Shown: positions 2,504 to 52,998, counted from the first letter of the stretch. The stretch is 64,000 nucleotides of DNA from Candidatus Doudnabacteria bacterium (GCA_028286905.1 JAQBQP010000001.1:15114-79113), one strand, 5' to 3'. Numbers and translations: made by a program. The notes: generated by a model not told the origin, from the letters alone.

Positions 2504-3919
2504 TTAGATATCGGGTATCGGAATTGACTGGTTCTTCTTGCGGCGATCTTCGCCATTTTCTCCATTGTTCGGCTGCTGCTGCCAGGCCTGATCGTTCCAC
2601 CCTCGGCCAGCCATCAGCCACCAGAAACCACGAATGCTCTTTGCGAGCAACGGCTCGAAAAGATACTGCGGCATTTCGGCGGGAGTCATCGTTCGATTTC
2701 CGATTGCGCTAACCACCTCGGTCATTATCGATACCTCGCGAGTCCGCAAATCGGGACTGAGGTGCACCAGTCCACCTGTTGGATCGCGACGCCGGCACCA
2801 ACGCATTGCGTAATGTGCCCAGGTCACCGAGTCGATCATCGGAAACAAGCAGACCATTCGGATATCCAAGCCGAGCCGTTCCAGATCTTCAACCCAGAGA
2901 AACATCAATTTCATCCAAGTCAGCCGAGCGAAGATCGTGCCGCGAATGTTGATCTCGGAAATCCAAATCGGCTTCCGACCGCAACGCTCCCAGTACTGTT
3001 GCGCAACTTGCACCATCCCAATCGGATTCGGACTTGGGGCGCGCGAGAACCGCTGATAGTACTTCCGTTCGGAATGGGAATAATAATCCAATCCCCAAAC
3101 CACGGTACCCTTCAGCTGGTGCTTTACGGCCCAGTCGATGAAATCCTCGCCGAAACCGAACTTTCGAAGATAGCCGTTATTCTGGCCGTTGCCGAGCACC
3201 AGGTCCATGAACAGAAACCGACGTTCATTCAGCTCCCATTCAAAACTCGGATTGTGCGGCGCCTGGTGATATTCACAGGTGTCGACCCACCAGATCTCTA
3301 CTTCAGGATCCACCCGTTGCAGATCTTCCGCGATCAGCAAAATCGACTTCACCACGATCTCCACCACTGGAAAGAGCTTGCTCTGCACTTCCAGTTTGGT
3401 TTTCTCCGGATCATCCCACCCCTTAACCGTCCAGAACGGCGGCCACTTCCCGAAATGCACTGACAAGAATGTGGTCGCAGTGGGCTCATTGAAAGGGGTG
3501 AACTTCTTCAGCCATGGGAATTCTTTTTTCAACGCCAACGCAAATTGGCGCGACGCTTCGACATAGCGCGGATCGGCAATTCCCAAAGTCATCCAACTTG
3601 GGTGACAAGTGTGATGGTTTAGGTCGATGATCGGATCCAAACCAAGCCGAAGAATTTCCAGCAGCTGTGCACGGACCGGTTCGAAATCAATCTCACCTTC
3701 CTTGCGTTCGCACTTCCACCACGGAATTCCGTAACGGATCAGCCGCATCCCCGCCGACTTTGCCAAAGCAAGGTCTTCGGGATACTTTGGCACAACCCCG
3801 TGCTTCACCGCCCAAGGACTTGGGCTGTGAAAGGTCAGGTCGGCGGTATCCACCTGCATTGGTTTGCGGTTGTGGTATAGCCGAGTGCTTTCGATCCCGG
3901 CGCCCAATGGTGCTCGCAT
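2504..3919 (-). CDS. glycoside hydrolase family 1-like (divergent beta-glucosidase/6-phospho-beta-glycosidase fold); high-GC gene
   Basis: 471 aa. GH1-like motifs RYGIPWWKCERKEGEIDF (cf. RFSISWSRI), FNEPTATT (cf. TLNEP acid/base) and WISEINI (cf. YITENG nucleophile). GGGGGAG SD lies 2 nt before the ATG. GC is about 57% against a ~38% backbone. Confidence 0.6.
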   Translation of the reverse strand: MRAPLGAGIESTRLYHNRKPMQVDTADLTFHSPSPWAVKHGVVPKYPEDLALAKSAGMRLIRYGIPWWKCERKEGEIDFEPVRAQLLEILRLGLDPIIDLNHHTCHPSWMTLGIADPRYVEASRQFALALKKEFPWLKKFTPFNEPTATTFLSVHFGKWPPFWTVKGWDDPEKTKLEVQSKLFPVVEIVVKSILLIAEDLQRVDPEVEIWWVDTCEYHQAPHNPSFEWELNERRFLFMDLVLGNGQNNGYLRKFGFGEDFIDWAVKHQLKGTVVWGLDYYSHSERKYYQRFSRAPSPNPIGMVQVAQQYWERCGRKPIWISEINIRGTIFARLTWMKLMFLWVEDLERLGLDIRMVCLFPMIDSVTWAHYAMRWCRRRDPTGGLVHLSPDLRTREVSIMTEVVSAIGNRTMTPAEMPQYLFEPLLAKSIRGFWWLMAGRGWNDQAWQQQPNNGENGEDRRKKNQSIPIPDI

Positions 3920-10297: not shown

Positions 10298-10439
10298 TTT
10301 CAGTGGCGGAAAAGTTTCGCCTCCCAAAAAACTTAGCTTGCACCAAACTCCCAGTCCTGATAAACTAGTTCAATGTAACTGGGATGATACCCTGCGAAAG
10401 CCGCAGAGATAAGCCCACAAGAACCCAAAGGAGGGTTAA

Positions 10440-10928
10440 GTGAAAACGCTCACGAATGAGCCGCAGGTCCGCACGCCTTCGGAGAAGATCATTCCGGCAA
10501 GTCGCGGAACGTTCTACAGCTATGCCTCCGTGTTCACAATCGCGCGGCCGCTGTTCTGCCTGATGGATTGCAAGGCGAACAAGGCCCGTCCGACAGAAGA
10601 CGCCGAGACGCTCGTCGAAGAAGTCGACATGGTCTTCAATTTCGGTGATCCGGTCCGGCTCCGCTCGCCGAATTCCAGGACGACCCAGATCGCACGCATC
10701 GAGATGAACGACTACGCCTTCGATGAAGTGCGTCAGAAGAAGGACGGCGAGGCTCTGGCCCAGATCGTCCGCCAGCTCATGGCGACCGAACAGGTCACCA
10801 CGGACATGGCACTCGAGCCCGGAATGGTTCTCGGGGTCGCGACGTCGAACAACAAGTTCGGCCTTCTCCGCATCGCCGCGCTGGCCGATTCATTCGTATC
10901 GATCGACGCCTGCCACATCCTCCTGTAA
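10440..10928 (+). CDS. hypothetical protein encoded in a high-GC island, GTG start
   Basis: 162 aa. AAGGAGGG SD lies 5 nt upstream of the GTG. GC is about 60%. Followed by a hairpin terminator. Confidence 0.5.
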   Translation: MKTLTNEPQVRTPSEKIIPASRGTFYSYASVFTIARPLFCLMDCKANKARPTEDAETLVEEVDMVFNFGDPVRLRSPNSRTTQIARIEMNDYAFDEVRQKKDGEALAQIVRQLMATEQVTTDMALEPGMVLGVATSNNKFGLLRIAALADSFVSIDACHILL

Positions 10929-10954
10929 CACGAGGGCGCGGTAAGGCAGCACAA

Positions 10955-10995
10955 AACGCCGTCAGAGGATCAAACCTCTGGCGGCGTTTCTCATA
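10955..10995 (+). terminator. rho-independent terminator of the high-GC 162-aa gene
   Basis: acgccgtcagagg-atcaaa-cctctggcggcgt stem, followed by ttctcatattc. Confidence 0.6.
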
Positions 10996-11081
10996 TTCAT
11001 GAACTACCATGGCAGTGGGATGTGGCAACTGTGCTCCGAGAACATACGAATTATGTTCATGTCCCCGTTATGAAATAGCTA

Positions 11082-12036: not shown

Positions 12037-13974
12037 CTATTTTTTGGCTTGCTTTTTTCGTTTTTTTCTTCGCGGCACAACCCATAAAAACGAAGCTAAT
12101 AAGAGAAGCCCTATTAATAAAAGAAAGATGCGCAGAACGCATCTTTCTTTTATATCTATATTATCTTTCTGTAAGATTGTTGGAGCAGGAGAAGCAACAA
12201 TGACTGTAGCGATGGCAAGATCTTTTACTAAAATACCATTGGCTTGACCAGTTGCTATCGCTGTATTTGTAGTAGTCTTTAAAATCCTCGTAGTACAAGT
12301 GTAGTCCCAAGTCTCAGTAATACCGAGTCTCGAATCACTATTTTTATCACCAGTAACGTATTCGACCGGACTACATTTATCATCAGTGATGTTAACATTA
12401 CTCAGCGCGATTTTTCCAGGGTTGCTAATTTTTTGAACGTAAGTAATCATCCCTCCCCTTACTGGCAAAGTAAATGAGTTCGGAACATTTATAACATGAA
12501 TAATCGGTGTTATAACTATAGCTGGCATTCCGACCACAACCGTGGCGCTTGCAATATCTGTTGCAGAAATATTATTGGCCCAACCAGTCGCGACTGCAAC
12601 ATCAATGTTGGTTTTTGTAAGCCTAACGGAACAACGGTAAATCCATATTTCATTTATATCAAGTACGTCGTCAGAATTAATATCACCGGAAGTAAGATTG
12701 ATAGGCTTACAACTGTTACCAAGTATTGTAATATTGGTCACAGGAACCGTTCCAATATTACGTAACGTGTAAGTGAACGTCACTAAACCCGGGCCGCCAG
12801 GCAAGGCCAAAGGATTTGGAATTTTAATAATATCAATAACCGGTGGGGTCGGAACAACGACCGGAATAAATGGAACAACTGGTGGCGACTGTCCACCAGA
12901 ACCACCACCTCCTGATGAAGGAGGGACAATCAGCGGTGCGATGTCATCATTAATAACTATGCAGAACATCTGGCTGCCAGAAACCACATCGATCCGACCA
13001 GAAGCGTCACAATCTCCGGAAAATTCTTGAGTGTAGTTTACATCTGCAGTCTCTGTCACGGTGTACGATGCAGGTGCCGCAAAGGAATTGGTCTGGCCAG
13101 AAATGACTGACGAGCCATTTACGAACAGCGGAAAGTCAGCCACGACTTTGGTTCGACCATTATCATTGATCACTGTAGCAACGACATTGATCGATGCAGA
13201 TGGTGGTGGAGTGGGAGTTGGACTAGGCGAAGGTGTTGGAGTAGGCGTCGGTGAAGGGCTTGGAGCTGGAGGCGGAGGCGGCGCTGGGGCACTACATGAA
13301 GGCACGGTAATGGAGTTAGTATCAGAGGTTACCGCTTTGCCAAATGCCAGAGCTCTTCCTGTCCATATCGTGCCAGCACCCAACGTCACGGCCGCAGGAT
13401 CAATCACAGTTCCTATAAAAGTTGTTCCGGCACCTAGAGTTACCGCACCAGTCGGCGTCCAAAAAATATCACAAGCCGATGCTCCTCCGGCTAACGCAAT
13501 CGTTATACCAGCTGTAGAATTTAGTGCGCCAACGATCCTGAAGGTGTATGTCCCACTACCGCTAAGAGTGATCCCGGTTGTTATGGAAACAGCACCAGTA
13601 ATACAATACACTCCTGGAATTATTGGTTGAGATAAGGTGGCGAGATCAGTAGCAGCACCAAAAATAAAAGTACAAGTTTCAGCATTTAAGGCGCTCAAAG
13701 CAGTGCCCTGATCTGCTCCTGCCGCCGTATAGGGGTCAGAGGATCCATAATTCGTATGTGTACCAGAAGGTGCAATCGCAGGCGCAACGGTGAAACCGAC
13801 ATCTCCATTGATCGTGGTTGCTGACGTATTGGCGTAAGTACCAGTAAGCACGCCATAAGTTGCCGCTGCTCCCAAAGATGGAGTGGTGGCTGCAGCGTCG
13901 ACTTGTTGTGTACCAAGCCTAAGCACGAAAAAAACGACCAATAAAACCATCAGGATATTAGCAATTCTTTTCAT
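12037..13974 (-). CDS. cell-surface protein: N-terminal ice-binding-like (DUF3494) domain, Pro/Thr/Ser linker, two DUF11-type repeats, C-terminal TM anchor with basic tail
   Basis: 645 aa. LGAAATYGVLTGTYANTSATTINGDVGF resembles the DUF3494 start. PAPPPPPAPSPSPTPTPTPSPSPTPTPPPS linker. Two ~90-aa repeats with the N.TD.KC...GD.NSD..L...E.W.Y.C pattern (DUF11-like). C-terminal IFLLLIGLLLLASFLWVVPRRKKRKK. Confidence 0.55.
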   Translation of the reverse strand: MKRIANILMVLLVVFFVLRLGTQQVDAAATTPSLGAAATYGVLTGTYANTSATTINGDVGFTVAPAIAPSGTHTNYGSSDPYTAAGADQGTALSALNAETCTFIFGAATDLATLSQPIIPGVYCITGAVSITTGITLSGSGTYTFRIVGALNSTAGITIALAGGASACDIFWTPTGAVTLGAGTTFIGTVIDPAAVTLGAGTIWTGRALAFGKAVTSDTNSITVPSCSAPAPPPPPAPSPSPTPTPTPSPSPTPTPPPSASINVVATVINDNGRTKVVADFPLFVNGSSVISGQTNSFAAPASYTVTETADVNYTQEFSGDCDASGRIDVVSGSQMFCIVINDDIAPLIVPPSSGGGGSGGQSPPVVPFIPVVVPTPPVIDIIKIPNPLALPGGPGLVTFTYTLRNIGTVPVTNITILGNSCKPINLTSGDINSDDVLDINEIWIYRCSVRLTKTNIDVAVATGWANNISATDIASATVVVGMPAIVITPIIHVINVPNSFTLPVRGGMITYVQKISNPGKIALSNVNITDDKCSPVEYVTGDKNSDSRLGITETWDYTCTTRILKTTTNTAIATGQANGILVKDLAIATVIVASPAPTILQKDNIDIKERCVLRIFLLLIGLLLLASFLWVVPRRKKRKKQAKK

Positions 13975-27076: not shown

Positions 27077-30000
27077 TTATTGTTTGATTGAAAAGCTTCC
27101 TGTTGGGAAGTTGTAAACCAAAGCACCGCTACGAGCAGATAGTGTTCCACCACCAGCTACGTCAGTCCATAGGAAGTTTGTCTGATCAACAGATGTTGAT
27201 ACAGAAACTGTAGCACCAGCAACAACTGTTGCGTTTACTACGCCGTATAGGCTGAATACTTGTGATGTACTAGCAGTGATCAAGAATTCTGGGCTAAATA
27301 CACAATCAACACGAGTGGTTACACCGCTCGCAGTTGTTGCTGTACATGTAGTACCAGAGATTGTTGTTGTACCACTTGCAATGCGGGCAGAAGTGACAGC
27401 CGGACCAACCGACACACCAGAACCACCAACGTTAAAGCGGATTGTACCAACGGAGATGTTACCAGCTGCATCAGCAGTCACTGTAACTTCACCAATCTTG
27501 TTTTCTGCACCTAGAATCAAACCAGACTTTTGAGCTGTATCAACAGACAAAGTAGGTTTAGAACCAACTAGAGTCTGAGTAGGAGCTGCAACGTTTGGAG
27601 TGATAACTGTTGTTGTACCGCCAGCAACGTACTTAACGTAAGTTAAAGCAACGCTGTTAGTTGTAGCAGAAGCTACACCGGTAACACCAACTGGGCTGTA
27701 AGAAACAGTAACTGGAACATTTACACCACCGGAACCGTTAGGAACAGCAATGTTTAAACCAGTTATTGTTGCTACGCCACCTACTACTGGAGCTGTTACG
27801 CCACCAACTTTTACGTTAGTAACACCAGAACCAGTTACTGTGAATCTCAACTCATTGATATTAGCAGTTCCGCTAGTAGCCAAGAAGTTAAAGGAAGCCA
27901 CAGATGCATCAGTAACTCCACTTGCAGTACCGGCAGCAATATATTGTGCCTGTGTTGAAGCAGAAGCTACGATTGTAGGAGGGTTTGTTACAGTTGCTAC
28001 AGCTACAGTCATTGTTTGACCAGTAATAGGAAGAGATGTTGAAGTCTGATTACTATTTTGACCAATTGAAGTAACTGTTAGTGTAGTAATTTCTGTACCA
28101 GTTGTTGCAGATCCCAAGTCGCCAAAGATATCTACTGTACCGCTTGAGCTAACTGGGATTGTAACATTAGGAGAGAAAGAGTTTGAAGCTGTAGGTGAAC
28201 CAACCGTGTTACCAACTTGTGTGCCATTTACGAACACTTTCAAGTTTGTAAGATTAGTTAACGCTGCAGATCCAGAGATACCTACAGTCATAGATGTAAG
28301 ACGGATAGGTTCAGAATTGCTAGATTGCAATACGAATGAACCAAGTTTTACATTTTGATTGTTAGGTGAAACGTTTTGGCTTACGAAACCATTGCTTGCA
28401 GCAATAGTTAACGCAGCTGTACCAACAGTCAAACTGCTAGCTGCAGTTGCTGCAGGAACGTTGTATAGAGTTCCAGAGTAACGACCTTGCGCTGTGTTAG
28501 TAGTGCCAGTGATACTAGCAGTTACTGTACCAGCTGTGTAGTTTAAGTTGTTTGCAGTGATCAAATCAGCACGTACTTCAAGAGTTGAAGATTGACCGGC
28601 TGGGATAATCATTGACGAACCTAAGTTATACACCAAAGCTGTTGAACCGTTGAAATTCTGTGAAGAACCAACCTGGGCGCCATTTACGAACAATGTAACA
28701 TTGTTCAAAGTAGTGTCAGGGTGAGAGATTGTGTAAGCCAAACCTGATGCAGTTGTACCAGCGTAGGTAGCAGACAAAGTCAAAGATGTGTTAGAAGCGA
28801 TTGAAGAAATAGTGTAAGTTACACCACCAATAACAATCTTATCTAAAGCAACGTATGAGCTGAAGTTTGTACCTGTACCAGTTACTGTTGCGCTACCATT
28901 GGTAACAGCAACAGTACCTGTAGGAGCTGTAACTGGAGTTACCAATCCACCAGTGATGGAAGGAGCTAGGGTTAAGCTATTAACTTGCATATCTTCGCCA
29001 TAAGCTTGTACTTTGTAACGAGCAATTGGAGTGTTTGTAGCACCGCCAGTTACTGTTGTTACAACGCCGAAGCTTGGGTCAGAAGAAATTGTAAGAGAAC
29101 CATTACCGATAGTAATTGTACCACCGGAGTTTGCTGTAAATTGAGCACCACCAACGTTAGTTGGAGTGATGTTTACGTTAAACTGAGAATCAGTAACCAT
29201 CAAATCAGCTGCATTTTGCAAGGTGAATTGAACTGTGCGAGTTGCACCAGTTATGAAGTCAGCACGTACATCTAAAGTATGAGAACCAGTATTCATAGTA
29301 GCTGGGGTAGAACCCAAGTCAAATGAAACATAGCTAGAACCATTGATGGAAACTAAGCCAGATGCAGAAGCAACTTTGTTGCCATCTAGATATAGACCAT
29401 AGTTACCCAATGCGTTTGTAGGAGCTGATCCTACTTCACGTAGGGCAAGGCTCTTCAACCATACTACTCTAGTACCAACAGTGATAGGCGCAGACCATAC
29501 TGTCTGAGTTGTGCTACCAGCGTTAATAGAAGAGTTACCAATTGTATTTGTTCCTACTGTTACAGCTGCTGTTGAAGCACCTGAAACTGTAGAAATGTTA
29601 CCGCTTACTGGAACACCAGTAACAGCAAGAGTACCACTCATAGCAGATACCAATTGTACACCTACAGTTTGTCCGGAAATTCCAGAAACCTGAGATACAG
29701 AAGCAATATCAGCACGAACAGAAACGTTAGCTGAACCATTTACTGTAAACAAACCATTTGGGTTTGAGAAAGAAATGTTGCTACCTGTTGTTACAGAAGC
29801 AGCATCAGTTAATCTTGTGTTGCCTTGGTATAGGTATACGTTGTTCAAAGCTGAATCAGAAGAAACTCCGATTCTCTTCAAAGAAACTTGAGTAACAGCG
29901 CCGTTACCGTAGAAGGTAAAGTGACCTAAGTCAGCTGTTGCTTGTCCTGCTACCAAAGTGCTGCCAGCTGGCATATCTGAGCTTGCGCTTACAGATAATG

Positions 30001-30697
30001 AGCTACCAGTTACTGGAGGAATTGTTACACCACCCGCAGCGCCTGTTGGGTTCAATTGACCCATTACGCGCGCTTGCATGATACCAGAGCTCATAGGAAC
30101 TGCGATATCAGCAGCGTTTGCAGGAACTGCTTTTGCGAATGAGTAACCCCATGTGTTGAATACTGATTCAGATGGGATTCCCATTTTTCCACTTGAAGTG
30201 ATCAAGTAGATAGTACCACTTTGGTTAACCAAAGCGCCTGTTGGATGTTGTTGTGAAGAATTGGACAAGATTGTAGCAGAAGGCATGAATGATGTATCAC
30301 CAACCATGACGTTGCTCAATTTGTAACCAAGGCCGTTAAATACAGCCATTGATGTAATACCAGAACGTTGACCATTGTTGATCACGTAGATAGTACCCAT
30401 ATCATTGATAAGGGAACCGTCCATAGGAGGCACGAAGCTTCCTACTGGTAAAGCCAAATCTTCAGCAGATGCTGGCACTACTTGGCTCCATGAATTAAAT
30501 CCATAAGACAAGAACGCGCCACCTGAGGTGTAACCTCTGCGAACGCCGCTTGGATCGATGAAATAAACTGTTCCATTTACGGAAACGTTTGTTCCAACGG
30601 TGTGTACAGTAGCAGTTGCGAAAGACGCAAAGCTAGCAAGTACCAAAGCGGAGGAAGAAGCTACAGCAAAGGCTTTCTTTGCTAAAGTGTTAGACAT
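27077..30697 (-). CDS. giant secreted surface protein (1206 aa). Three tandem ~60-aa N-terminal repeats, followed by a ~950-aa Thr/Ser/Gly/Val/Ala-rich beta-rich region.
   Basis: Signal peptide. Repeats GTVYFIDPSGVRRGYTSGGAFLSYGF, GTIYVINNGQRSGITSMAVFNGLGY and GTIYLITSSGKMGIPSESVFNTWGY. No C-terminal anchor. Confidence 0.5.
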   Translation of the reverse strand: MSNTLAKKAFAVASSSALVLASFASFATATVHTVGTNVSVNGTVYFIDPSGVRRGYTSGGAFLSYGFNSWSQVVPASAEDLALPVGSFVPPMDGSLINDMGTIYVINNGQRSGITSMAVFNGLGYKLSNVMVGDTSFMPSATILSNSSQQHPTGALVNQSGTIYLITSSGKMGIPSESVFNTWGYSFAKAVPANAADIAVPMSSGIMQARVMGQLNPTGAAGGVTIPPVTGSSLSVSASSDMPAGSTLVAGQATADLGHFTFYGNGAVTQVSLKRIGVSSDSALNNVYLYQGNTRLTDAASVTTGSNISFSNPNGLFTVNGSANVSVRADIASVSQVSGISGQTVGVQLVSAMSGTLAVTGVPVSGNISTVSGASTAAVTVGTNTIGNSSINAGSTTQTVWSAPITVGTRVVWLKSLALREVGSAPTNALGNYGLYLDGNKVASASGLVSINGSSYVSFDLGSTPATMNTGSHTLDVRADFITGATRTVQFTLQNAADLMVTDSQFNVNITPTNVGGAQFTANSGGTITIGNGSLTISSDPSFGVVTTVTGGATNTPIARYKVQAYGEDMQVNSLTLAPSITGGLVTPVTAPTGTVAVTNGSATVTGTGTNFSSYVALDKIVIGGVTYTISSIASNTSLTLSATYAGTTASGLAYTISHPDTTLNNVTLFVNGAQVGSSQNFNGSTALVYNLGSSMIIPAGQSSTLEVRADLITANNLNYTAGTVTASITGTTNTAQGRYSGTLYNVPAATAASSLTVGTAALTIAASNGFVSQNVSPNNQNVKLGSFVLQSSNSEPIRLTSMTVGISGSAALTNLTNLKVFVNGTQVGNTVGSPTASNSFSPNVTIPVSSSGTVDIFGDLGSATTGTEITTLTVTSIGQNSNQTSTSLPITGQTMTVAVATVTNPPTIVASASTQAQYIAAGTASGVTDASVASFNFLATSGTANINELRFTVTGSGVTNVKVGGVTAPVVGGVATITGLNIAVPNGSGGVNVPVTVSYSPVGVTGVASATTNSVALTYVKYVAGGTTTVITPNVAAPTQTLVGSKPTLSVDTAQKSGLILGAENKIGEVTVTADAAGNISVGTIRFNVGGSGVSVGPAVTSARIASGTTTISGTTCTATTASGVTTRVDCVFSPEFLITASTSQVFSLYGVVNATVVAGATVSVSTSVDQTNFLWTDVAGGGTLSARSGALVYNFPTGSFSIKQ

Positions 30698-33682: not shown

Positions 33683-34175
33683 GGTTTTATTGATTTAATA
33701 TACAGGGTTAATTTTAAAATAAAACCGCCGAAATGTCAACGTAGCCCAATCGATCTAATTATTCCCCTTCCCTTCTAACTCTTATACTTTTTATAGCTTA
33801 AATATAAATTAAAAAAGATTCGTACTAAGAGCCTAGTAAATATAGCTCCGTACAAATCTTTTGGGCTGCCCCCAAACCGCATAAAGCGAGCTTAGGAGCC
33901 ATGGGTATTTTTGTTTGATTTAGGAGTGTACAGGAAATTGGTGGAAATGTCAAGGCTATAGGCGAACAGTGAATTATTTTACCTGCCCAATTCAGACAAA
34001 TTTTGTTTATAAAAAGAAAGACGCCCACCCTGACTAGAAGTCGGGGCGGGCGTTGATCAGCACTGGGCTGATCGGGCTCTCATGAATCATCCTACGCGGG
34101 ATCCCTGCAACGCGCGCGAGTGCGCATGTGTGAGCTTCCCTCCGAGTCGGTCGCGATGCGCGCGACCGATGATGA

Positions 34176-34505
34176 GGTAGACGGAAACGGCTTTGCGGGC
34201 CGTCTCAGAAGAAACCGTGGGACGACGACGCGCCGCGGAGCTACGAGGCTTCGGAGCTGTTCGCGGCGCGCGAGCCGGTGGCGACCGAGGTCGACGACGA
34301 GCCGATGATGCCGCGCGAGGTGAAGGTCATGGAATTACAGGACACTCTCCGGGTGCTGCGTCCGTGTCGGTCGATGGCTTTGGCCGGCGCGTGGGAACGG
34401 TTCATGATGGTTTCCTCCATGGAATGGTCATCAGAGCTTAGACGGTTTGTCCTTGCTCGACGGTCTCACACCTCATTGAGATGTGTTATCGTTTCGACAT
34501 CATAG
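34176..34505 (+). pseudogene. probable decayed gene remnant inside a 68% GC insert (no start codon or SD; possible frameshift near 34200)
   Basis: The frame with near-100% GC3 is open for ~110 codons (…ASELFAAREPVATEVDDEPMMPREVKVMELQDTLRVLRP…) but lacks an initiation signal. An upstream GC3-rich frame (34120..) is offset by one. An antisense 55-codon ORF with SD shares the same third positions. Confidence 0.25.
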
Positions 34506-34556
34506 CACATCCATAGAAAAAGTCAAGCACTTTACCTAAATTCAACAAAAAACCGC

Positions 34557-34582
34557 TTAAATAAGCGGTTTTCCCATATATA
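34557..34582. terminator. bidirectional terminator downstream of groEL
   Basis: aaaaaaccgctt-aaat-aagcggtttt. Confidence 0.7.
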
Positions 34583-36595: not shown

Positions 36596-36772
36596 ATTGT
36601 CCTAATTAAATTAATTAATCGCCTGGCTATTTGGGCCGAGTTTATACTCCATTTTAGCACATTCCCTCAGACATAGGTCAACTTGCATTTTTCCAATGGT
36701 TATGCGATTATGGCCTATGTTCGCAGTACTGTTTTCCCAAACACCTGCGCAAGTGCAGGAGGAAAAGAACAG

Positions 36773-37093
36773 ATGCCGCCAAGGACTGCAAGGGCACGCC
36801 GCGTTCACTTCGAAAAGATCGGACACTCCCGATCGGGTCCGAACTACGCCGGCTGGGTGATCGGCGCAGCATTGCTGCTGCTGGTATTCTTCGCAATGCG
36901 GACCGCGGGCGCCAACAACGAAGCCAAGATCAAGGCAGCGGCTGCGCACGCCGATTCGATTCGGGTGGCGGACTCCACCGCGAAGGCAGTGGCTGCCGAC
37001 TCCGTCAAGAAGGTCGATTCGACCGCCAAGGCCAACGCTGCAGCCAAGCAGCAGGCCAAGCCGACGAAGCACGCCGCCAAGAAGCGCCGCTAG
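36773..37093 (+). CDS. small membrane-anchored Ala/Lys-rich protein encoded in a high-GC island
   Basis: 106 aa from ATG 36773 (GGAGG SD lies 10 nt upstream). The track's TTG start at 36683 is unlikely. One TM (WVIGAALLLLVFFAM), then AKAAAA/KK-rich tail. GC about 63%. Confidence 0.45.
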   Translation: MPPRTARARRVHFEKIGHSRSGPNYAGWVIGAALLLLVFFAMRTAGANNEAKIKAAAAHADSIRVADSTAKAVAADSVKKVDSTAKANAAAKQQAKPTKHAAKKRR

Positions 37094-37118
37094 TGGCTGT
37101 TCAATCAACGTACAACGC

Positions 37119-37160
37119 GAGAGCGCCGAACTGTCTTACAGTCCGGCGCTCTTTCTATTT
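37119..37160 (+). terminator. terminator of the high-GC 106-aa gene
   Basis: gagcgccg-(14 nt loop)-cggcgctc followed by tttctattt. Confidence 0.5.
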
Positions 37161-37181
37161 GATCTTATTGCTTTACTCGAG

Positions 37182-38060
37182 TTAAATTTTAAACGGCACT
37201 CTTTCTAGAATCTGTCGGCCTTTATTGCCGGGATGGAAGCTTAATTCGTCTGGTTCGATAACAATGCTATCTTGAATATGAATTCTGCTTTGCTGCATCT
37301 TACCAATTAACTTTTCTAGGTAATCGCCTACTTTGCCATGGAGCAATCTCTCCATAAAAACCTTCACTCTTGAAGTTGCTAAATCTGGATATTTAACTAG
37401 CTGCGGTTGAATTAAATAGTTTTTAATCCATTCTAAATTATTTTGCTGAAATTTATATATTTGATCCGCGCCATAAAATGGAATTAACGAAACATACTCC
37501 ACCGCAGTGTAAACATGCCGTTCTCGGCCAACATTTTTACCATTTTGTACATAATGGTTTAAGCAAAAACGATTTTCCACAAATTTACCATGCCGGCGTA
37601 CTCCAAATATTTGAAAATAGGCAGTTAAAAACAATCGCGCGGTCCAAATTCGTCCAGGCGCCGTTAAAACTAGCAGGTCAATATCACTGCCCTGTTTGGA
37701 ATTATTTATCGCTTCGGAGCCCGTTAATGCTACTGCGTTAACAAATGGTACAAAACGTACCCTCGGCAAATATTTCTTCGCTCGTTTTAAACGAAAAGTA
37801 GAATAATAATTATTTTCTAACCGGCGCTTCGCGATTTCTGCTCGGCCTTTTAAAAAATAAAAACCTTTAGCGTGCTCAACTTCGGATAATGTCGGTAAAA
37901 TTTGTTGGATTTCTAAAAGTGTTGCCTGTTTGTTATCTGCAGAAACATTTAGCAAATACTTATAAATTTCTAATAATGTTAAAGGGTGATCCTGAACATT
38001 AAAATATTCCAGCGTTTTAACGATCTGATTATTTAAACTATTTGGCGTAGGATCGATCAT
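37182..38060 (-). CDS. nucleotidyltransferase-fold protein
   Basis: 292 aa. GSEAINNSKQGSDIDLLVL matches the GS-x(9-13)-DhDh polymerase-beta-type NTase motif. Confidence 0.5.
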   Translation of the reverse strand: MIDPTPNSLNNQIVKTLEYFNVQDHPLTLLEIYKYLLNVSADNKQATLLEIQQILPTLSEVEHAKGFYFLKGRAEIAKRRLENNYYSTFRLKRAKKYLPRVRFVPFVNAVALTGSEAINNSKQGSDIDLLVLTAPGRIWTARLFLTAYFQIFGVRRHGKFVENRFCLNHYVQNGKNVGRERHVYTAVEYVSLIPFYGADQIYKFQQNNLEWIKNYLIQPQLVKYPDLATSRVKVFMERLLHGKVGDYLEKLIGKMQQSRIHIQDSIVIEPDELSFHPGNKGRQILERVPFKI

Positions 38061-52003: not shown

Positions 52004-52048
52004 AAAAAGAAAAGAACCTCACTACACACCTGGAAGGTGTGAGCGAGG
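52004..52048 (-). terminator. terminator of the high-GC lipoprotein gene
   Basis: cctcactacacacc-tggaa-ggtgtgagcgagg hairpin, followed in minus orientation by ttcttttcttttt. Confidence 0.55.
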
Positions 52049-52066
52049 CTCTCTGCTTAGAACGTC

Positions 52067-52828
52067 TTAGTGCTTGATGCGGAGGTGCAGGGTGAACGGA
52101 CAGGTGCCGACACCGACGATCCGAACTCCATGAACCTCGTCAGATTCCAACGTGCCCCACGGTGACTCGCCCCAACTGATTTTGTTGGAGCTGAGGAATG
52201 TGATGTCGTGGAAGATCGTATCGCCCGGCGCACGTACAGTCGTGATCTGGGTTCCCCCGTAGGTTCCCGAAACATTCCGGGCCGTGAACGAGCCAGACTT
52301 GCTCTGGGCGTACAAGGTGTTGCCGAGGATCACATTTGGATTCGGGCTCATCCAGGCGGTATCGTTTGGAATAACGATGTCCGCACAACTGAAGTCACCG
52401 GAGTTCAAACGGAGCGTCGTACTCACCGTCGTGGTAACCACCGGGTTCGAGGATCGGGGATCGCCGGTCGCGGTGATCAAATAGGTAATGATCGACGGCG
52501 TGTTCAAGTTGAAGTCCGCCGGCGGAGCATTTGCCTGATTGACGACGATGCTGTCACAGCCGAAGACCTTCACGGAAATCGGCAGACTAGCGTCCCGACC
52601 CAGAGCATTAGACGGTGTCCGGTCAACCTTGCAGCTGAGGGCATTAGATGCCGCCAGCAGAATGGTCGTAGTCCGGTTCAGCGTCTCGAACTTCGGGGGT
52701 GGCGGAATGACGCCGAGCGTGGGGCTAGCAGGTGGAATGGGGTTCCCGGGCTGGGTAGTTTCGCCTCCCCCTCCACAAGAAACCACCAAGAGCGCTGAAG
52801 CCGCCATGGTGCAAAAAGACTTTCTCAT
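52067..52828 (-). CDS. lipoprotein, hypothetical, encoded in a high-GC island
   Basis: 253 aa from ATG 52828 (AAGGAGGG SD lies 4 nt upstream; the track's start at 52861 lacks an SD). Signal MRKSFCTMAASALLVVSC with lipobox. GC about 57%. The plus-strand ORFs 52208..52798 and others are antisense shadows. Confidence 0.5.
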   Translation of the reverse strand: MRKSFCTMAASALLVVSCGGGGETTQPGNPIPPASPTLGVIPPPPKFETLNRTTTILLAASNALSCKVDRTPSNALGRDASLPISVKVFGCDSIVVNQANAPPADFNLNTPSIITYLITATGDPRSSNPVVTTTVSTTLRLNSGDFSCADIVIPNDTAWMSPNPNVILGNTLYAQSKSGSFTARNVSGTYGGTQITTVRAPGDTIFHDITFLSSNKISWGESPWGTLESDEVHGVRIVGVGTCPFTLHLRIKH

Positions 52829-52998
52829 ACAGCCCTCCTTGGTGGCTGAAGTGTATCGCATTTACGGATCTGTGTATTTAGACCGCGTCGTACCTTATAT
52901 ATACGGTATTTGGCAGTAAATGTCAAGGGGCTGTTTATACAAATGCTGAGAAAGGATGTTACCTTTCCCCTTTTAAAACCGTAATATACACTATAAGC

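Follow-up and report, generated by a model that had tools for sequence, protein, structure and literature searches.

A GC-rich cassette between groEL and rpmF in Candidatus Doudnabacteria as a candidate two-cistron mini-gene

Layout of the groEL–rpmF gap

The stretch of DNA analyzed here (the window) comprises 64,000 nucleotides from Candidatus Doudnabacteria, a lineage of the Patescibacteria/CPR. Its NusB and GroEL assign it to this lineage, and a GroEL 100% identical to its own is on record from an NCBI MAG contig of 248,627 nt. Between groEL and rpmF–nusB, it carries a GC-rich block that we call island E. Measured over 200, 300, 400, or 480 nt, this block is the GC peak of the window, whose mean GC content is 40.8%. 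An earlier inspection of the same DNA (the sequence-only reading) had picked it out as the most GC-extreme block, rightly by this measure, but had put its GC content at 68% over positions 34030–34510. That figure describes a core of 200–300 nt within 34091–34390 (68.5% over the 200 nt from 34091, 67.3% over 300 nt). The whole of 34030–34510 has 60.9%, the best 480-nt stretch in the block 61.9%, and the part from 34022 to 34405 65%.

The features of the locus are collected in Table 1. They compose a predicted transcription unit on the minus strand that begins with a promoter matching the σ70 hexamers at 10 of 12 positions, with the TG extension present. The block had been taken to reach the groEL terminator, but this promoter and a 5′ UTR of ordinary composition (GC 0.43 upstream of the ORF1 ATG) intervene. 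At its other edge, the hairpin that had been described as the start of the block is real (arms at 34021–34035 and 34039–34053). On the minus strand, it directly precedes CTTTCTTTTT; because the T-run is present on that strand only, the hairpin is the terminator and marks the end of the unit rather than its start. A terminator-bounded σ70 unit is defined here by −35 and −10 elements at 16–18-nt spacing upstream and a GC-rich hairpin with a T-run downstream on the same strand, and island E has both, as predicted from its sequence. The only promoter-like site on the plus strand inside the cassette (34476–34503) matches at 9 of 12 positions and has a poor −10 element. Downstream, the block is adjoined by a conserved 114-nt element with the look of a structured small RNA (sRNA-like), which we call element X. 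Beyond the cassette terminator, conserved promoters precede both element X and rpmF.

Table 1. Predicted features of island E and its flanks; positions count from the first letter of the window
Feature	Position	Strand	Description
groEL stop	34624	-	Precedes the groEL terminator
groEL intrinsic terminator	34547..34574	-	12-bp stem, then T-run, -13.8 kcal/mol; upstream boundary, outside the cassette
Cassette promoter, sigma-70-type	34499..34526	-	TTGACT, 16-nt spacer, TG-extended TATGAT (TGcTATGAT)
5′ UTR, ~85 nt	34406..34492	-	Two hairpins; from sequence and fold, with the transcription start placed from the -10 hexamer
ORF1 SD, GGAGGA	34418..34413	-	7 nt before the ATG at 34405
ORF1, 54 codons and stop	34241..34405	-	MNRSHAPAKAIDRHGRSTRRVSCNSMTFTSRGIIGSSSTSVATGSRAANSSEAS; ATG 34405..34403, stop 34243..34241; from SD, ATG, and periodicity
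Perfect 9-bp hairpin	34147..34169	-	TCGGTCGCG/CGCGACCGA; -18.2 kcal/mol with flanks; 3-4 nt upstream of the second SD
Second SD, GGAGGG	34143..34138	-	Serves ORF2, spacing 10 nt
ORF2, 11 codons and stop	34127..34092	-	MRTRARCRDPA, Arg-rich; from SD and relatives
7-bp hairpin	34055..34073	-	GATCAGC...GCTGATC; separates ORF2 from the terminator
Intrinsic terminator	34009..34053	-	Stem 34053..34021 (-25.6 kcal/mol), then CTTTCTTTTTAT at 34020..34009
Next promoter downstream of the cassette	33953..33925	-	Promoter of element X
rpmF promoter	33739..33711	-	After element X, before rpmF-nusB

The cassette contains two open reading frames with a ribosome-binding site. The first, ORF1, is the antisense ORF that had been noted behind a perfect SD (ggaggaaaccatcATG), and it is present as described. 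It had also been stated that nothing in the block exceeds 55 codons. This holds among ORFs with a ribosome-binding site, but not otherwise: with GTG and TTG starts counted, three plus-strand ORFs reach 62, 75, and 82 codons, and the minus strand also has a 59-codon ORF that starts with ATG.

Related cassettes and coding signals

We compared ten syntenic loci, all of which have element X and a GroEL 78–89% identical to that of the window, and added more distant loci such as L004. Eight cassettes of the same layout occupy the groEL–rpmF site in seven genomes: the window, L001 (two in tandem), L082, L084, L086, L089, and L090. Island E corresponds in position to L001 c2: the flank with terminator and promoter is 81% identical between the two, the flank with element X is 79% identical, and the groEL terminator of the window is 81% homologous to the terminator that precedes L001 c2. 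The contents of the site vary. In L085, the gap is empty, with the promoter of element X directly after the groEL terminator. A BrnT/BrnA pair accompanies the cassette in L089, and a GT2 glycosyltransferase gene and an EamA gene accompany it in L086. L088 encodes a stress-type protein with KGG repeats as well as an orphan of 60 codons, L004 carries an intact 503-codon GC-rich ORF, and L083 carries only the ORF2-plus-terminator module, which is fused behind groEL and lacks its own promoter. When 90 loci and the window were translated in six frames, no further copy of the ORF1/ORF2 families appeared outside the groEL–rpmF gap, no target-site duplication was seen by eye between the empty L085 and the filled L084, and a metagenome scan with the element X pattern returned a single chance match. 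On these comparisons, the cassettes form a family that is restricted to this lineage and occupies a variable gap between groEL and rpmF–nusB in Candidatus Doudnabacteria. Both flanks of groESL in Doudnabacteria would be hot spots for GC-rich orphan genes.

The layout is the same throughout. All eight cassettes have an SD, an ATG, and a peptide that begins M-x-R, and all eight end in a comparable hairpin and T-run; by the same criteria as in the window, promoter-like sites lie upstream of ORF1 in six. The SD-preceded ORFs of at least 8 codons in the cassettes are ORF1 alone, joined by ORF2 in four loci.

In ORF1 of the window, GC content at the three codon positions is 0.44, 0.69, and 0.85. GC3 of ORF1 is 0.81–0.86 in seven of the eight cassettes and 0.67 in the eighth, versus 0.35 in groEL of the host. 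The periodicity follows the frame set by the SD and ATG and fades near the ORF1 stop; in the 3′ parts of the cassettes (100–785 nt), which are GC-rich and without codon periodicity, GC content at the same phase is 0.47–0.63. Codon 3 is Arg in all eight cassettes, with CGT, CGC, CGG, and CGA all used. Toward the C-terminal part, the peptides also share a loose x-[IL]-G-[GAS] motif, after which the tail varies in length from 1 to ~19 residues. The window peptide is basic, rich in Ser and Thr, and without a hydrophobic segment; it ends SSEAS and is probably disordered. The lengths of ORF1 (21–54 codons) are those expected by chance for an ATG in sequence of 65% GC, and the peptides are barely alignable (17–33% identity to that of the window), so the case for ORF1 rests on its periodicity and its M-x-R start. 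The CAI of ORF1, with the host as reference, is 0.53, below all 44 host genes (0.65–0.78); its codons are ones that are rare for the host.

The same periodicity had been read on the plus strand, as a frame with nearly 100% GC3 for ~110 codons. The periodicity is there (GC 0.90–0.97 at one codon phase, ~34200–34400), but it extends over only ~65 codons and coincides with the antisense ORF, the shared third positions making the plus-strand frame a mirror image of ORF1, as had been recognized. As to the apparent frame switch near 34200, the periodicity ends at the ORF1 stop and does not continue in a shifted frame. The plus-strand frame does lack an SD, as reported, and it lacks a promoter and a homologue as well. 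The sequence-only reading had held that the coding strand could not be decided. The syntenic loci, which were to be searched for an intact version of the block, instead share the minus-strand layout, and stops interrupt the mirror frame on the plus strand in four of the eight cassettes, which points to the minus strand as the coding strand. A decayed plus-strand gene was rejected as a candidate: it has no homologue, it belongs to no family, and every second related cassette interrupts its frame.

ORF2 is recognizable in four loci only (the window, L001 c2, L082, and L083). Its SD spacing in the window, 10 nt, is long. The ORF2 peptide of the window and that of L001 c2 (MRIRTRPRCRSPAS) are identical at 9 of 11 residues, with 12–13 nucleotide differences in 33 nt; these changes give pS 0.88 and pN 0.18 (p ~1e-4, for the same number of changes placed randomly). 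At the corresponding place, L082 encodes MTKRTAPRAPL and L083 encodes MSKRTAPRAPL, a pair with pS 0.63 and pN 0.09 (p ~8e-4). The pN/pS ratio of ~0.2 in two independent pairs shows, at the level of substitution patterns, that purifying selection acts on ORF2. That the ORF2 type of the window and L001 c2 is homologous to that of L082 and L083 is no more than suggestive. Small coding ORFs are recognized here by a ribosome-binding site, in-frame codon periodicity, and conservation of the peptide across synonymous change; judged by sequence, both count as such, ORF1 by its SD, its periodicity, and the varied third base of its Arg codon 3, and ORF2 by its pS and pN; their translation is predicted.

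Maintenance, RNA structure, and competing explanations

Four-fold sites of groEL are only 27–47% identical between these genomes, which is near saturation. Since neutral sites have been replaced to this extent, the features that the cassettes still have in common would be under selection. By this argument, purifying selection is predicted for the promoter, for the SD and M-x-R start of ORF1, for the ORF2 peptide and the hairpin that precedes it, and for the terminator and element X. The poorly alignable interiors of the cassettes would be the outcome of neutral divergence, with no need to invoke hypermutation. The same saturation means that a single old transfer, its signal slowly eroding, cannot account for the GC richness. 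The high GC content is either maintained by selection or renewed by repeated replacement of the cassettes from a GC-rich pool. The puzzle is how a foreign-looking silent-site composition is kept where silent sites of the neighboring genes are saturated, and its two candidate answers are selection that acts, within very small genes, on silent positions or on the fold of the RNA, and an unseen GC-rich gene pool that feeds these episymbionts. Selection on RNA structure through the arrangement of synonymous codons in ORF1 was rejected, as permuting these codons among identical amino acids gave no consistent structural signal (z +2.4 to −2.5).

These observations bear on the proposal that a high-GC gene was captured and that the block is what frameshifts have left of it. 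In this account, island E is the decaying residue of such a gene, on either strand, with no present function. Several features are of the kind it predicts. The codon usage and GC content are foreign, like those of four other islands in the window; other GC-rich genes occupy the same site in relatives (the intact 503-codon ORF of L004 and the KGG-repeat gene of L088); in L084, ~100 codons remain open past ORF1 in the same frame; and the ORF lengths fit chance. A dead copy, however, should drift toward host GC content and be deleted from a compact genome, whereas the expression signals, ORF2, and high GC content of the cassettes persist despite saturated neutral sites. Further, the periodicity ends with ORF1, stops interrupt the plus-strand mirror frame in four of the eight cassettes, and no frame matches any known family or protein; the homology searches for a captured gene (tblastn against plasmids and phages, and protein searches) matched nothing. 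We therefore judge a remnant to be quite unlikely. The combination argues, at the sequence level, for a maintained and translated unit rather than a decaying one.

A second possibility is that the RNA itself is the product, a structured regulatory or dual-function RNA acting in trans or binding protein, in which the function would reside in the GC-rich hairpins and the ORFs are secondary or only regulatory. The transcripts are, as modeled, unusually hairpin-rich. All eight fold better than their dinucleotide shuffles (z −2.1 to −8.0), and the folding excess is greatest in those with the longest 3′ part (z −8.0 in L086, −6.5 in L090). A GC-rich island in an otherwise AT-rich genome is a classic hallmark of an RNA gene, and the 3′ parts of 100–785 nt are rich in GC without being periodic. 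The GGTCGC...GCGACC hairpin recurs at the matching place in L001 c2 with one compensatory change (closing pair C-G to A-U), and L084 has a similar hairpin. Against these points, the two strands of the window cassette fold about equally (z about −4.2 to −4.3 for the transcript, −4.1 for its complement). Beyond that hairpin and the terminator, no structure could be aligned between cassettes; the 3′ parts align only between the window and L001 c2, so no conserved architecture can be demonstrated. Rfam, at gathering and at permissive thresholds (E up to 10), gave at best 14–25 bits for the window block against thresholds of 37–140, and no match in the cassettes of six related loci; ARAGORN found no tmRNA. 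The suggestion of a structured noncoding RNA is thus upheld as to folding but not as to family or wider conservation, and, as the proposed Rfam check shows, no described RNA family explains the block. Moreover, conservation is strongest in a peptide whose codons have changed synonymously, and the periodicity of ORF1 is of the coding type. An RNA product seems unlikely to us.

Third, the cassette could act in cis as a leader, in which translation of ORF1 or ORF2 would sense tRNA charging or stalling and thereby set the read-through into element X and rpmF–nusB. Like the thrL, hisL, and pheL attenuators and antibiotic-responsive leader ORFs, island E has a very short ORF of biased composition, hairpins, and then an intrinsic terminator. 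A tiny ORF lies directly before the terminator in the window, L001 c2, L082, and L083; Arg, or else Thr, Ser, and Ile, abound in the peptides; and the codons of ORF1 are rare for the host. In addition, the small ORFs of L082 and L083 end with RAPL and a stop, and ORF1 of L001 c2 contains RAPIG, which recall the motifs of RAPP/RAPG-type arrest peptides such as ApdA, ApdP, and ApcA (PMC7897499, PMC10951233). Those peptides are defined by a C-terminal RAPP or RAPG (or RGPP) and a downstream gene of the Sec/YidC pathway (PMC7897499, PMC10951233). The window ORFs end SSEAS and RCRDPA and lack the defining motif, and what follows them is an sRNA-like element and rpmF rather than a Sec/YidC gene; an arrest peptide of this type was rejected as an identification of the window ORFs. 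An attenuator requires mutually exclusive terminator and antiterminator pairings tied to a leader ORF and a regulated gene directly downstream that has no promoter of its own. Inspection of the folds revealed no conserved antiterminator pairing, and the downstream units, element X and rpmF, are each equipped with a conserved promoter. The cassette is also dispensable and duplicable (empty gap in L085, tandem copies in L001), and the ORF2 stop lies at no conserved distance from the terminator (~8, 25, or 36 nt, with the stop of L001 c2 ~8 nt from the stem). A cis-acting leader is therefore improbable.

Fourth, the locus could be a type I toxin–antitoxin system or a bacteriocin- or pheromone-type locus, with ORF1 encoding a toxic or exported peptide, for example one processed at a double-glycine-type site at x-[IL]-G-G. 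As in hok/sok, tisB/istR, and fst, the peptide has fewer than 60 residues, its mRNA is long and highly folded, and the site is an accessory one, where presence varies and where L089 carries BrnT/BrnA. The loosely conserved [IL]-G-[GAS] with its variable tail and the fast divergence of the peptides would also fit. A type I system, however, needs a hydrophobic or transmembrane toxin together with a gene for an antisense RNA that overlaps it or lies next to it. The ORF1 peptide is hydrophilic and basic rather than a membrane helix, unlike the known type I toxins, and no convincing antisense promoter or RNA gene is evident, the sole plus-strand site being weak. The double-glycine leader consensus is LSxxELxxIxGG. 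The residues upstream of the motif in ORF1 do not fit it, the defining motif is absent from both window ORFs, and a scan of the nine largest genes and one neighboring gene found no ABC exporter with a C39 peptidase. This fourth possibility is, to us, very improbable.

On balance, we lean toward reading island E as a maintained, independently expressed accessory mini-gene on the minus strand, whose product would be a structured two-cistron mRNA for peptides of 54 and 11 residues. A σ70-type promoter would drive an mRNA of ~480 nt, rich in GC and dense in hairpins, that a strong intrinsic terminator closes. Two ribosome-binding sites on this mRNA would serve ORF1 and the Arg-rich micropeptide ORF2, and both peptides would be made and be the functional products. 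The hairpins would stabilize and terminate the mRNA, insulating the downstream small RNA and the rpmF operon. What the peptides do is only a guess; a role under stress, in which these small basic peptides bind to nucleic acid or to ribosomes, would be in keeping with their composition and with the neighborhood (groESL, and in relatives a KGG protein and a toxin–antitoxin pair at the same site).

By analogy, this mini-gene would come closest in its working to a small RNA that encodes a peptide, or to a gene for a small protein, situated at a genomic hot spot. With dual-function sRNAs such as SgrS/SgrT, RNAIII/hld, and SR1/SR1P, it shares a short structured RNA with its own promoter and terminator and an SD-preceded ORF beside noncoding parts. 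It differs from them in having two ORFs, a GC content extreme relative to its genome, and no relationship in sequence or in Rfam. With horizontally acquired islets at core-gene hot spots, it shares atypical GC content and codons, presence/absence polymorphism, and a site between groEL and rpmF whose cargo varies, from a toxin–antitoxin pair or a glycosyltransferase to a KGG protein or orphan genes. Unlike typical islets, one family persists here across genomes whose silent sites are saturated, with GC3 still foreign-looking.

A bolder version of the mini-gene reading is that cassettes of this type make up an unrecognized family of two-cistron micropeptide RNAs that is found in CPR bacteria only and is actively maintained. 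Its function would lie in the very act of translating host-rare codons from an RNA dense in hairpins, and selection would for that reason hold both the extreme GC3 (0.85 in a genome with 0.35) and the Arg-rich 11-residue ORF. We regard this version as unlikely. If it were true, island E could be, for example, a sensor of translational capacity or tRNA supply between the chaperonin and ribosomal-protein operons, possibly together with element X.

Homology searches and the wider set of islands

The protein searches were uniformly without a match. Pfam, PHROGs, and NCBIfam gave none for ORF1 or the tested plus-strand frames; neither the plus-strand frame nor a three-peptide alignment of ORF1 found a relative among 5.8 billion proteins; a HMMER search with ORF1 of 1.84 billion cluster representatives returned nothing; and tblastn and blastn against plasmids and phages showed no similarity of DNA or protein. 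As no homologue was found, no function can be transferred. ORF1 presumably resembles ribosomal protein L34 at its N terminus (M-x-R-T/S-x-x-P, then R-H-G), but the idea of a degenerate L34 was dropped since Pfam gave no match even at E values up to 10. Island E thus matches neither an Rfam family nor a known protein family, and, as judged from these searches, it lies outside every described RNA or protein family and would be a new family of a known kind.

Repeats likewise do not account for the block. A REP- or MITE-like element was rejected since the 64-kb window contains no second copy of any segment of the block that is 15 nt or longer, as was a single element copied into the five GC-rich islands of the window, since these have no mutual sequence similarity. 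No donor, integrase, or repeat was found for island E.

None of five candidate ORFs from the block occurs as an exact sequence in a collection of 15 billion proteins, in which islands A and G of the same MAG are present, and the unit is therefore apparently unannotated. On the mini-gene reading, an apparent junk insert becomes a defined and testable unit with two unannotated micropeptide ORFs. The reduced genomes of Patescibacteria/CPR leave little room for useless DNA, and island E would be an example of how standard annotation misses units of this kind.

The other GC-rich islands of the window have CAI values of 0.44–0.57, like that of ORF1. Island A encodes a GH1-like hydrolase with distant relatives on plasmids of Deinococcus and Microvirga, and on this account some of the islands look like ordinary acquisitions from GC-rich bacteria.

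A conserved structured RNA beside rpmF

The conserved structured RNA of this region is element X, and not the GC-rich block (island E, the minus-strand cassette between groEL and rpmF-nusB), for which the sequence-only reading had entertained a structured RNA. X lies between the terminator of that cassette and the promoter of rpmF. X is kept in 10 of 10 syntenic loci, and against locus L001 it retains 79% identity while silent sites are saturated. Its 5' tail is A-rich, and it contains a 14-bp hairpin (CUCCUAAGCUCG / CGGUUUGGGGG) together with a terminator helix. When the syntenic loci are compared, 93% of cells pair and compensatory changes occur at 11 pairs, values matched by none of 500 shuffles. 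X has no match in Rfam; it is a candidate for a new small RNA or for a leader of rpmF, the L32 gene.

Coordinates of features in the window and, where a locus is named, in related loci
Feature	Locus	Position	Strand	Description
Glycoside-hydrolase-like gene	window	2504-3919	-	family 1; 471 aa
GC-rich cassette	window	10379-11050		
ORF of this cassette	window	10440-10928	+	162-aa orphan
645-aa protein	window	12037-13974	-	ice-binding-like domain, DUF7507
1206-aa ORF	window	27077-30697	-	
X	window	33811-33924	-	~114 nt
X promoter	window	33953..33925	-	
Second GC-rich island	window	36683-37183		58-67% GC; directly upstream of groES, divergent from it
groES-side orphan ORF	window	36773-37093	+	106 codons; SD GGAGGA; own terminator
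GC-rich cassette	window	52008-52875		
ORF of this cassette	window	52067-52861	-	264 aa; annotated 'hypothetical' (MDB4939633.1)
groEL-rpmF gap	L004	3894-5405		GC-rich ORF, 503 codons
groEL-rpmF gap	L085	5660-5720		empty
groEL-rpmF gap	L086	5701-6810		GT2 glycosyltransferase, EamA transporter
groEL-rpmF gap	L088	5814-6636		KGG-repeat stress protein, 60-aa orphan
groEL-rpmF gap	L089	5713-6262		BrnT/BrnA toxin-antitoxin pair
Reduced cassette	L083	5654-5985		cassette promoter and ORF1 start both missing

Variable islets on both sides of groESL

Judged by its contents in relatives, the groEL-rpmF gap is a textbook accessory-gene hot spot, both flanking genes being highly conserved. In L083, GC-rich hairpins start directly 3' of the groEL stop, and all that is retained of the cassette is the micro-ORF MSKRTAPRAPL, its SD and the terminator, in a block 76% identical to that of L082 over 148 nt, with silent sites near saturation. 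Because this module is retained alone and at such identity, it may be the indispensable part of the cassette.

The second island holds an orphan ORF (GC3 = 0.79) whose product has a single transmembrane segment as well as a tail rich in Ala and Lys; this ORF was absent from the protein collection in both forms tested. Relatives carry other GC-rich orphans at the same place, or nothing. Since this island adds to the gap on the groEL side, both flanks of groESL are variable GC-rich islets.

Other GC-rich genes and large proteins

Two further GC-rich cassettes are each self-contained, with a promoter-like site, SD, ORF and terminator, and codon usage is non-host in both ORFs. Neither product matched anything in Pfam, PHROG, NCBIfam or plasmids; by eye, the 264-aa product looks like a lipoprotein. 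GC content is 52-55% in the glycoside-hydrolase-like gene, against 41% for the genome. This gene was probably acquired from a GC-rich bacterium; its sole plasmid relatives, 23-27% identical, come from Deinococcus, Microvirga, Hymenobacter and Methylocystis.

A Pfam search of the 1206-aa ORF to E 1e-5 returned no domain. Its product and the 645-aa protein are probably large surface proteins, which are frequent in CPR genomes.
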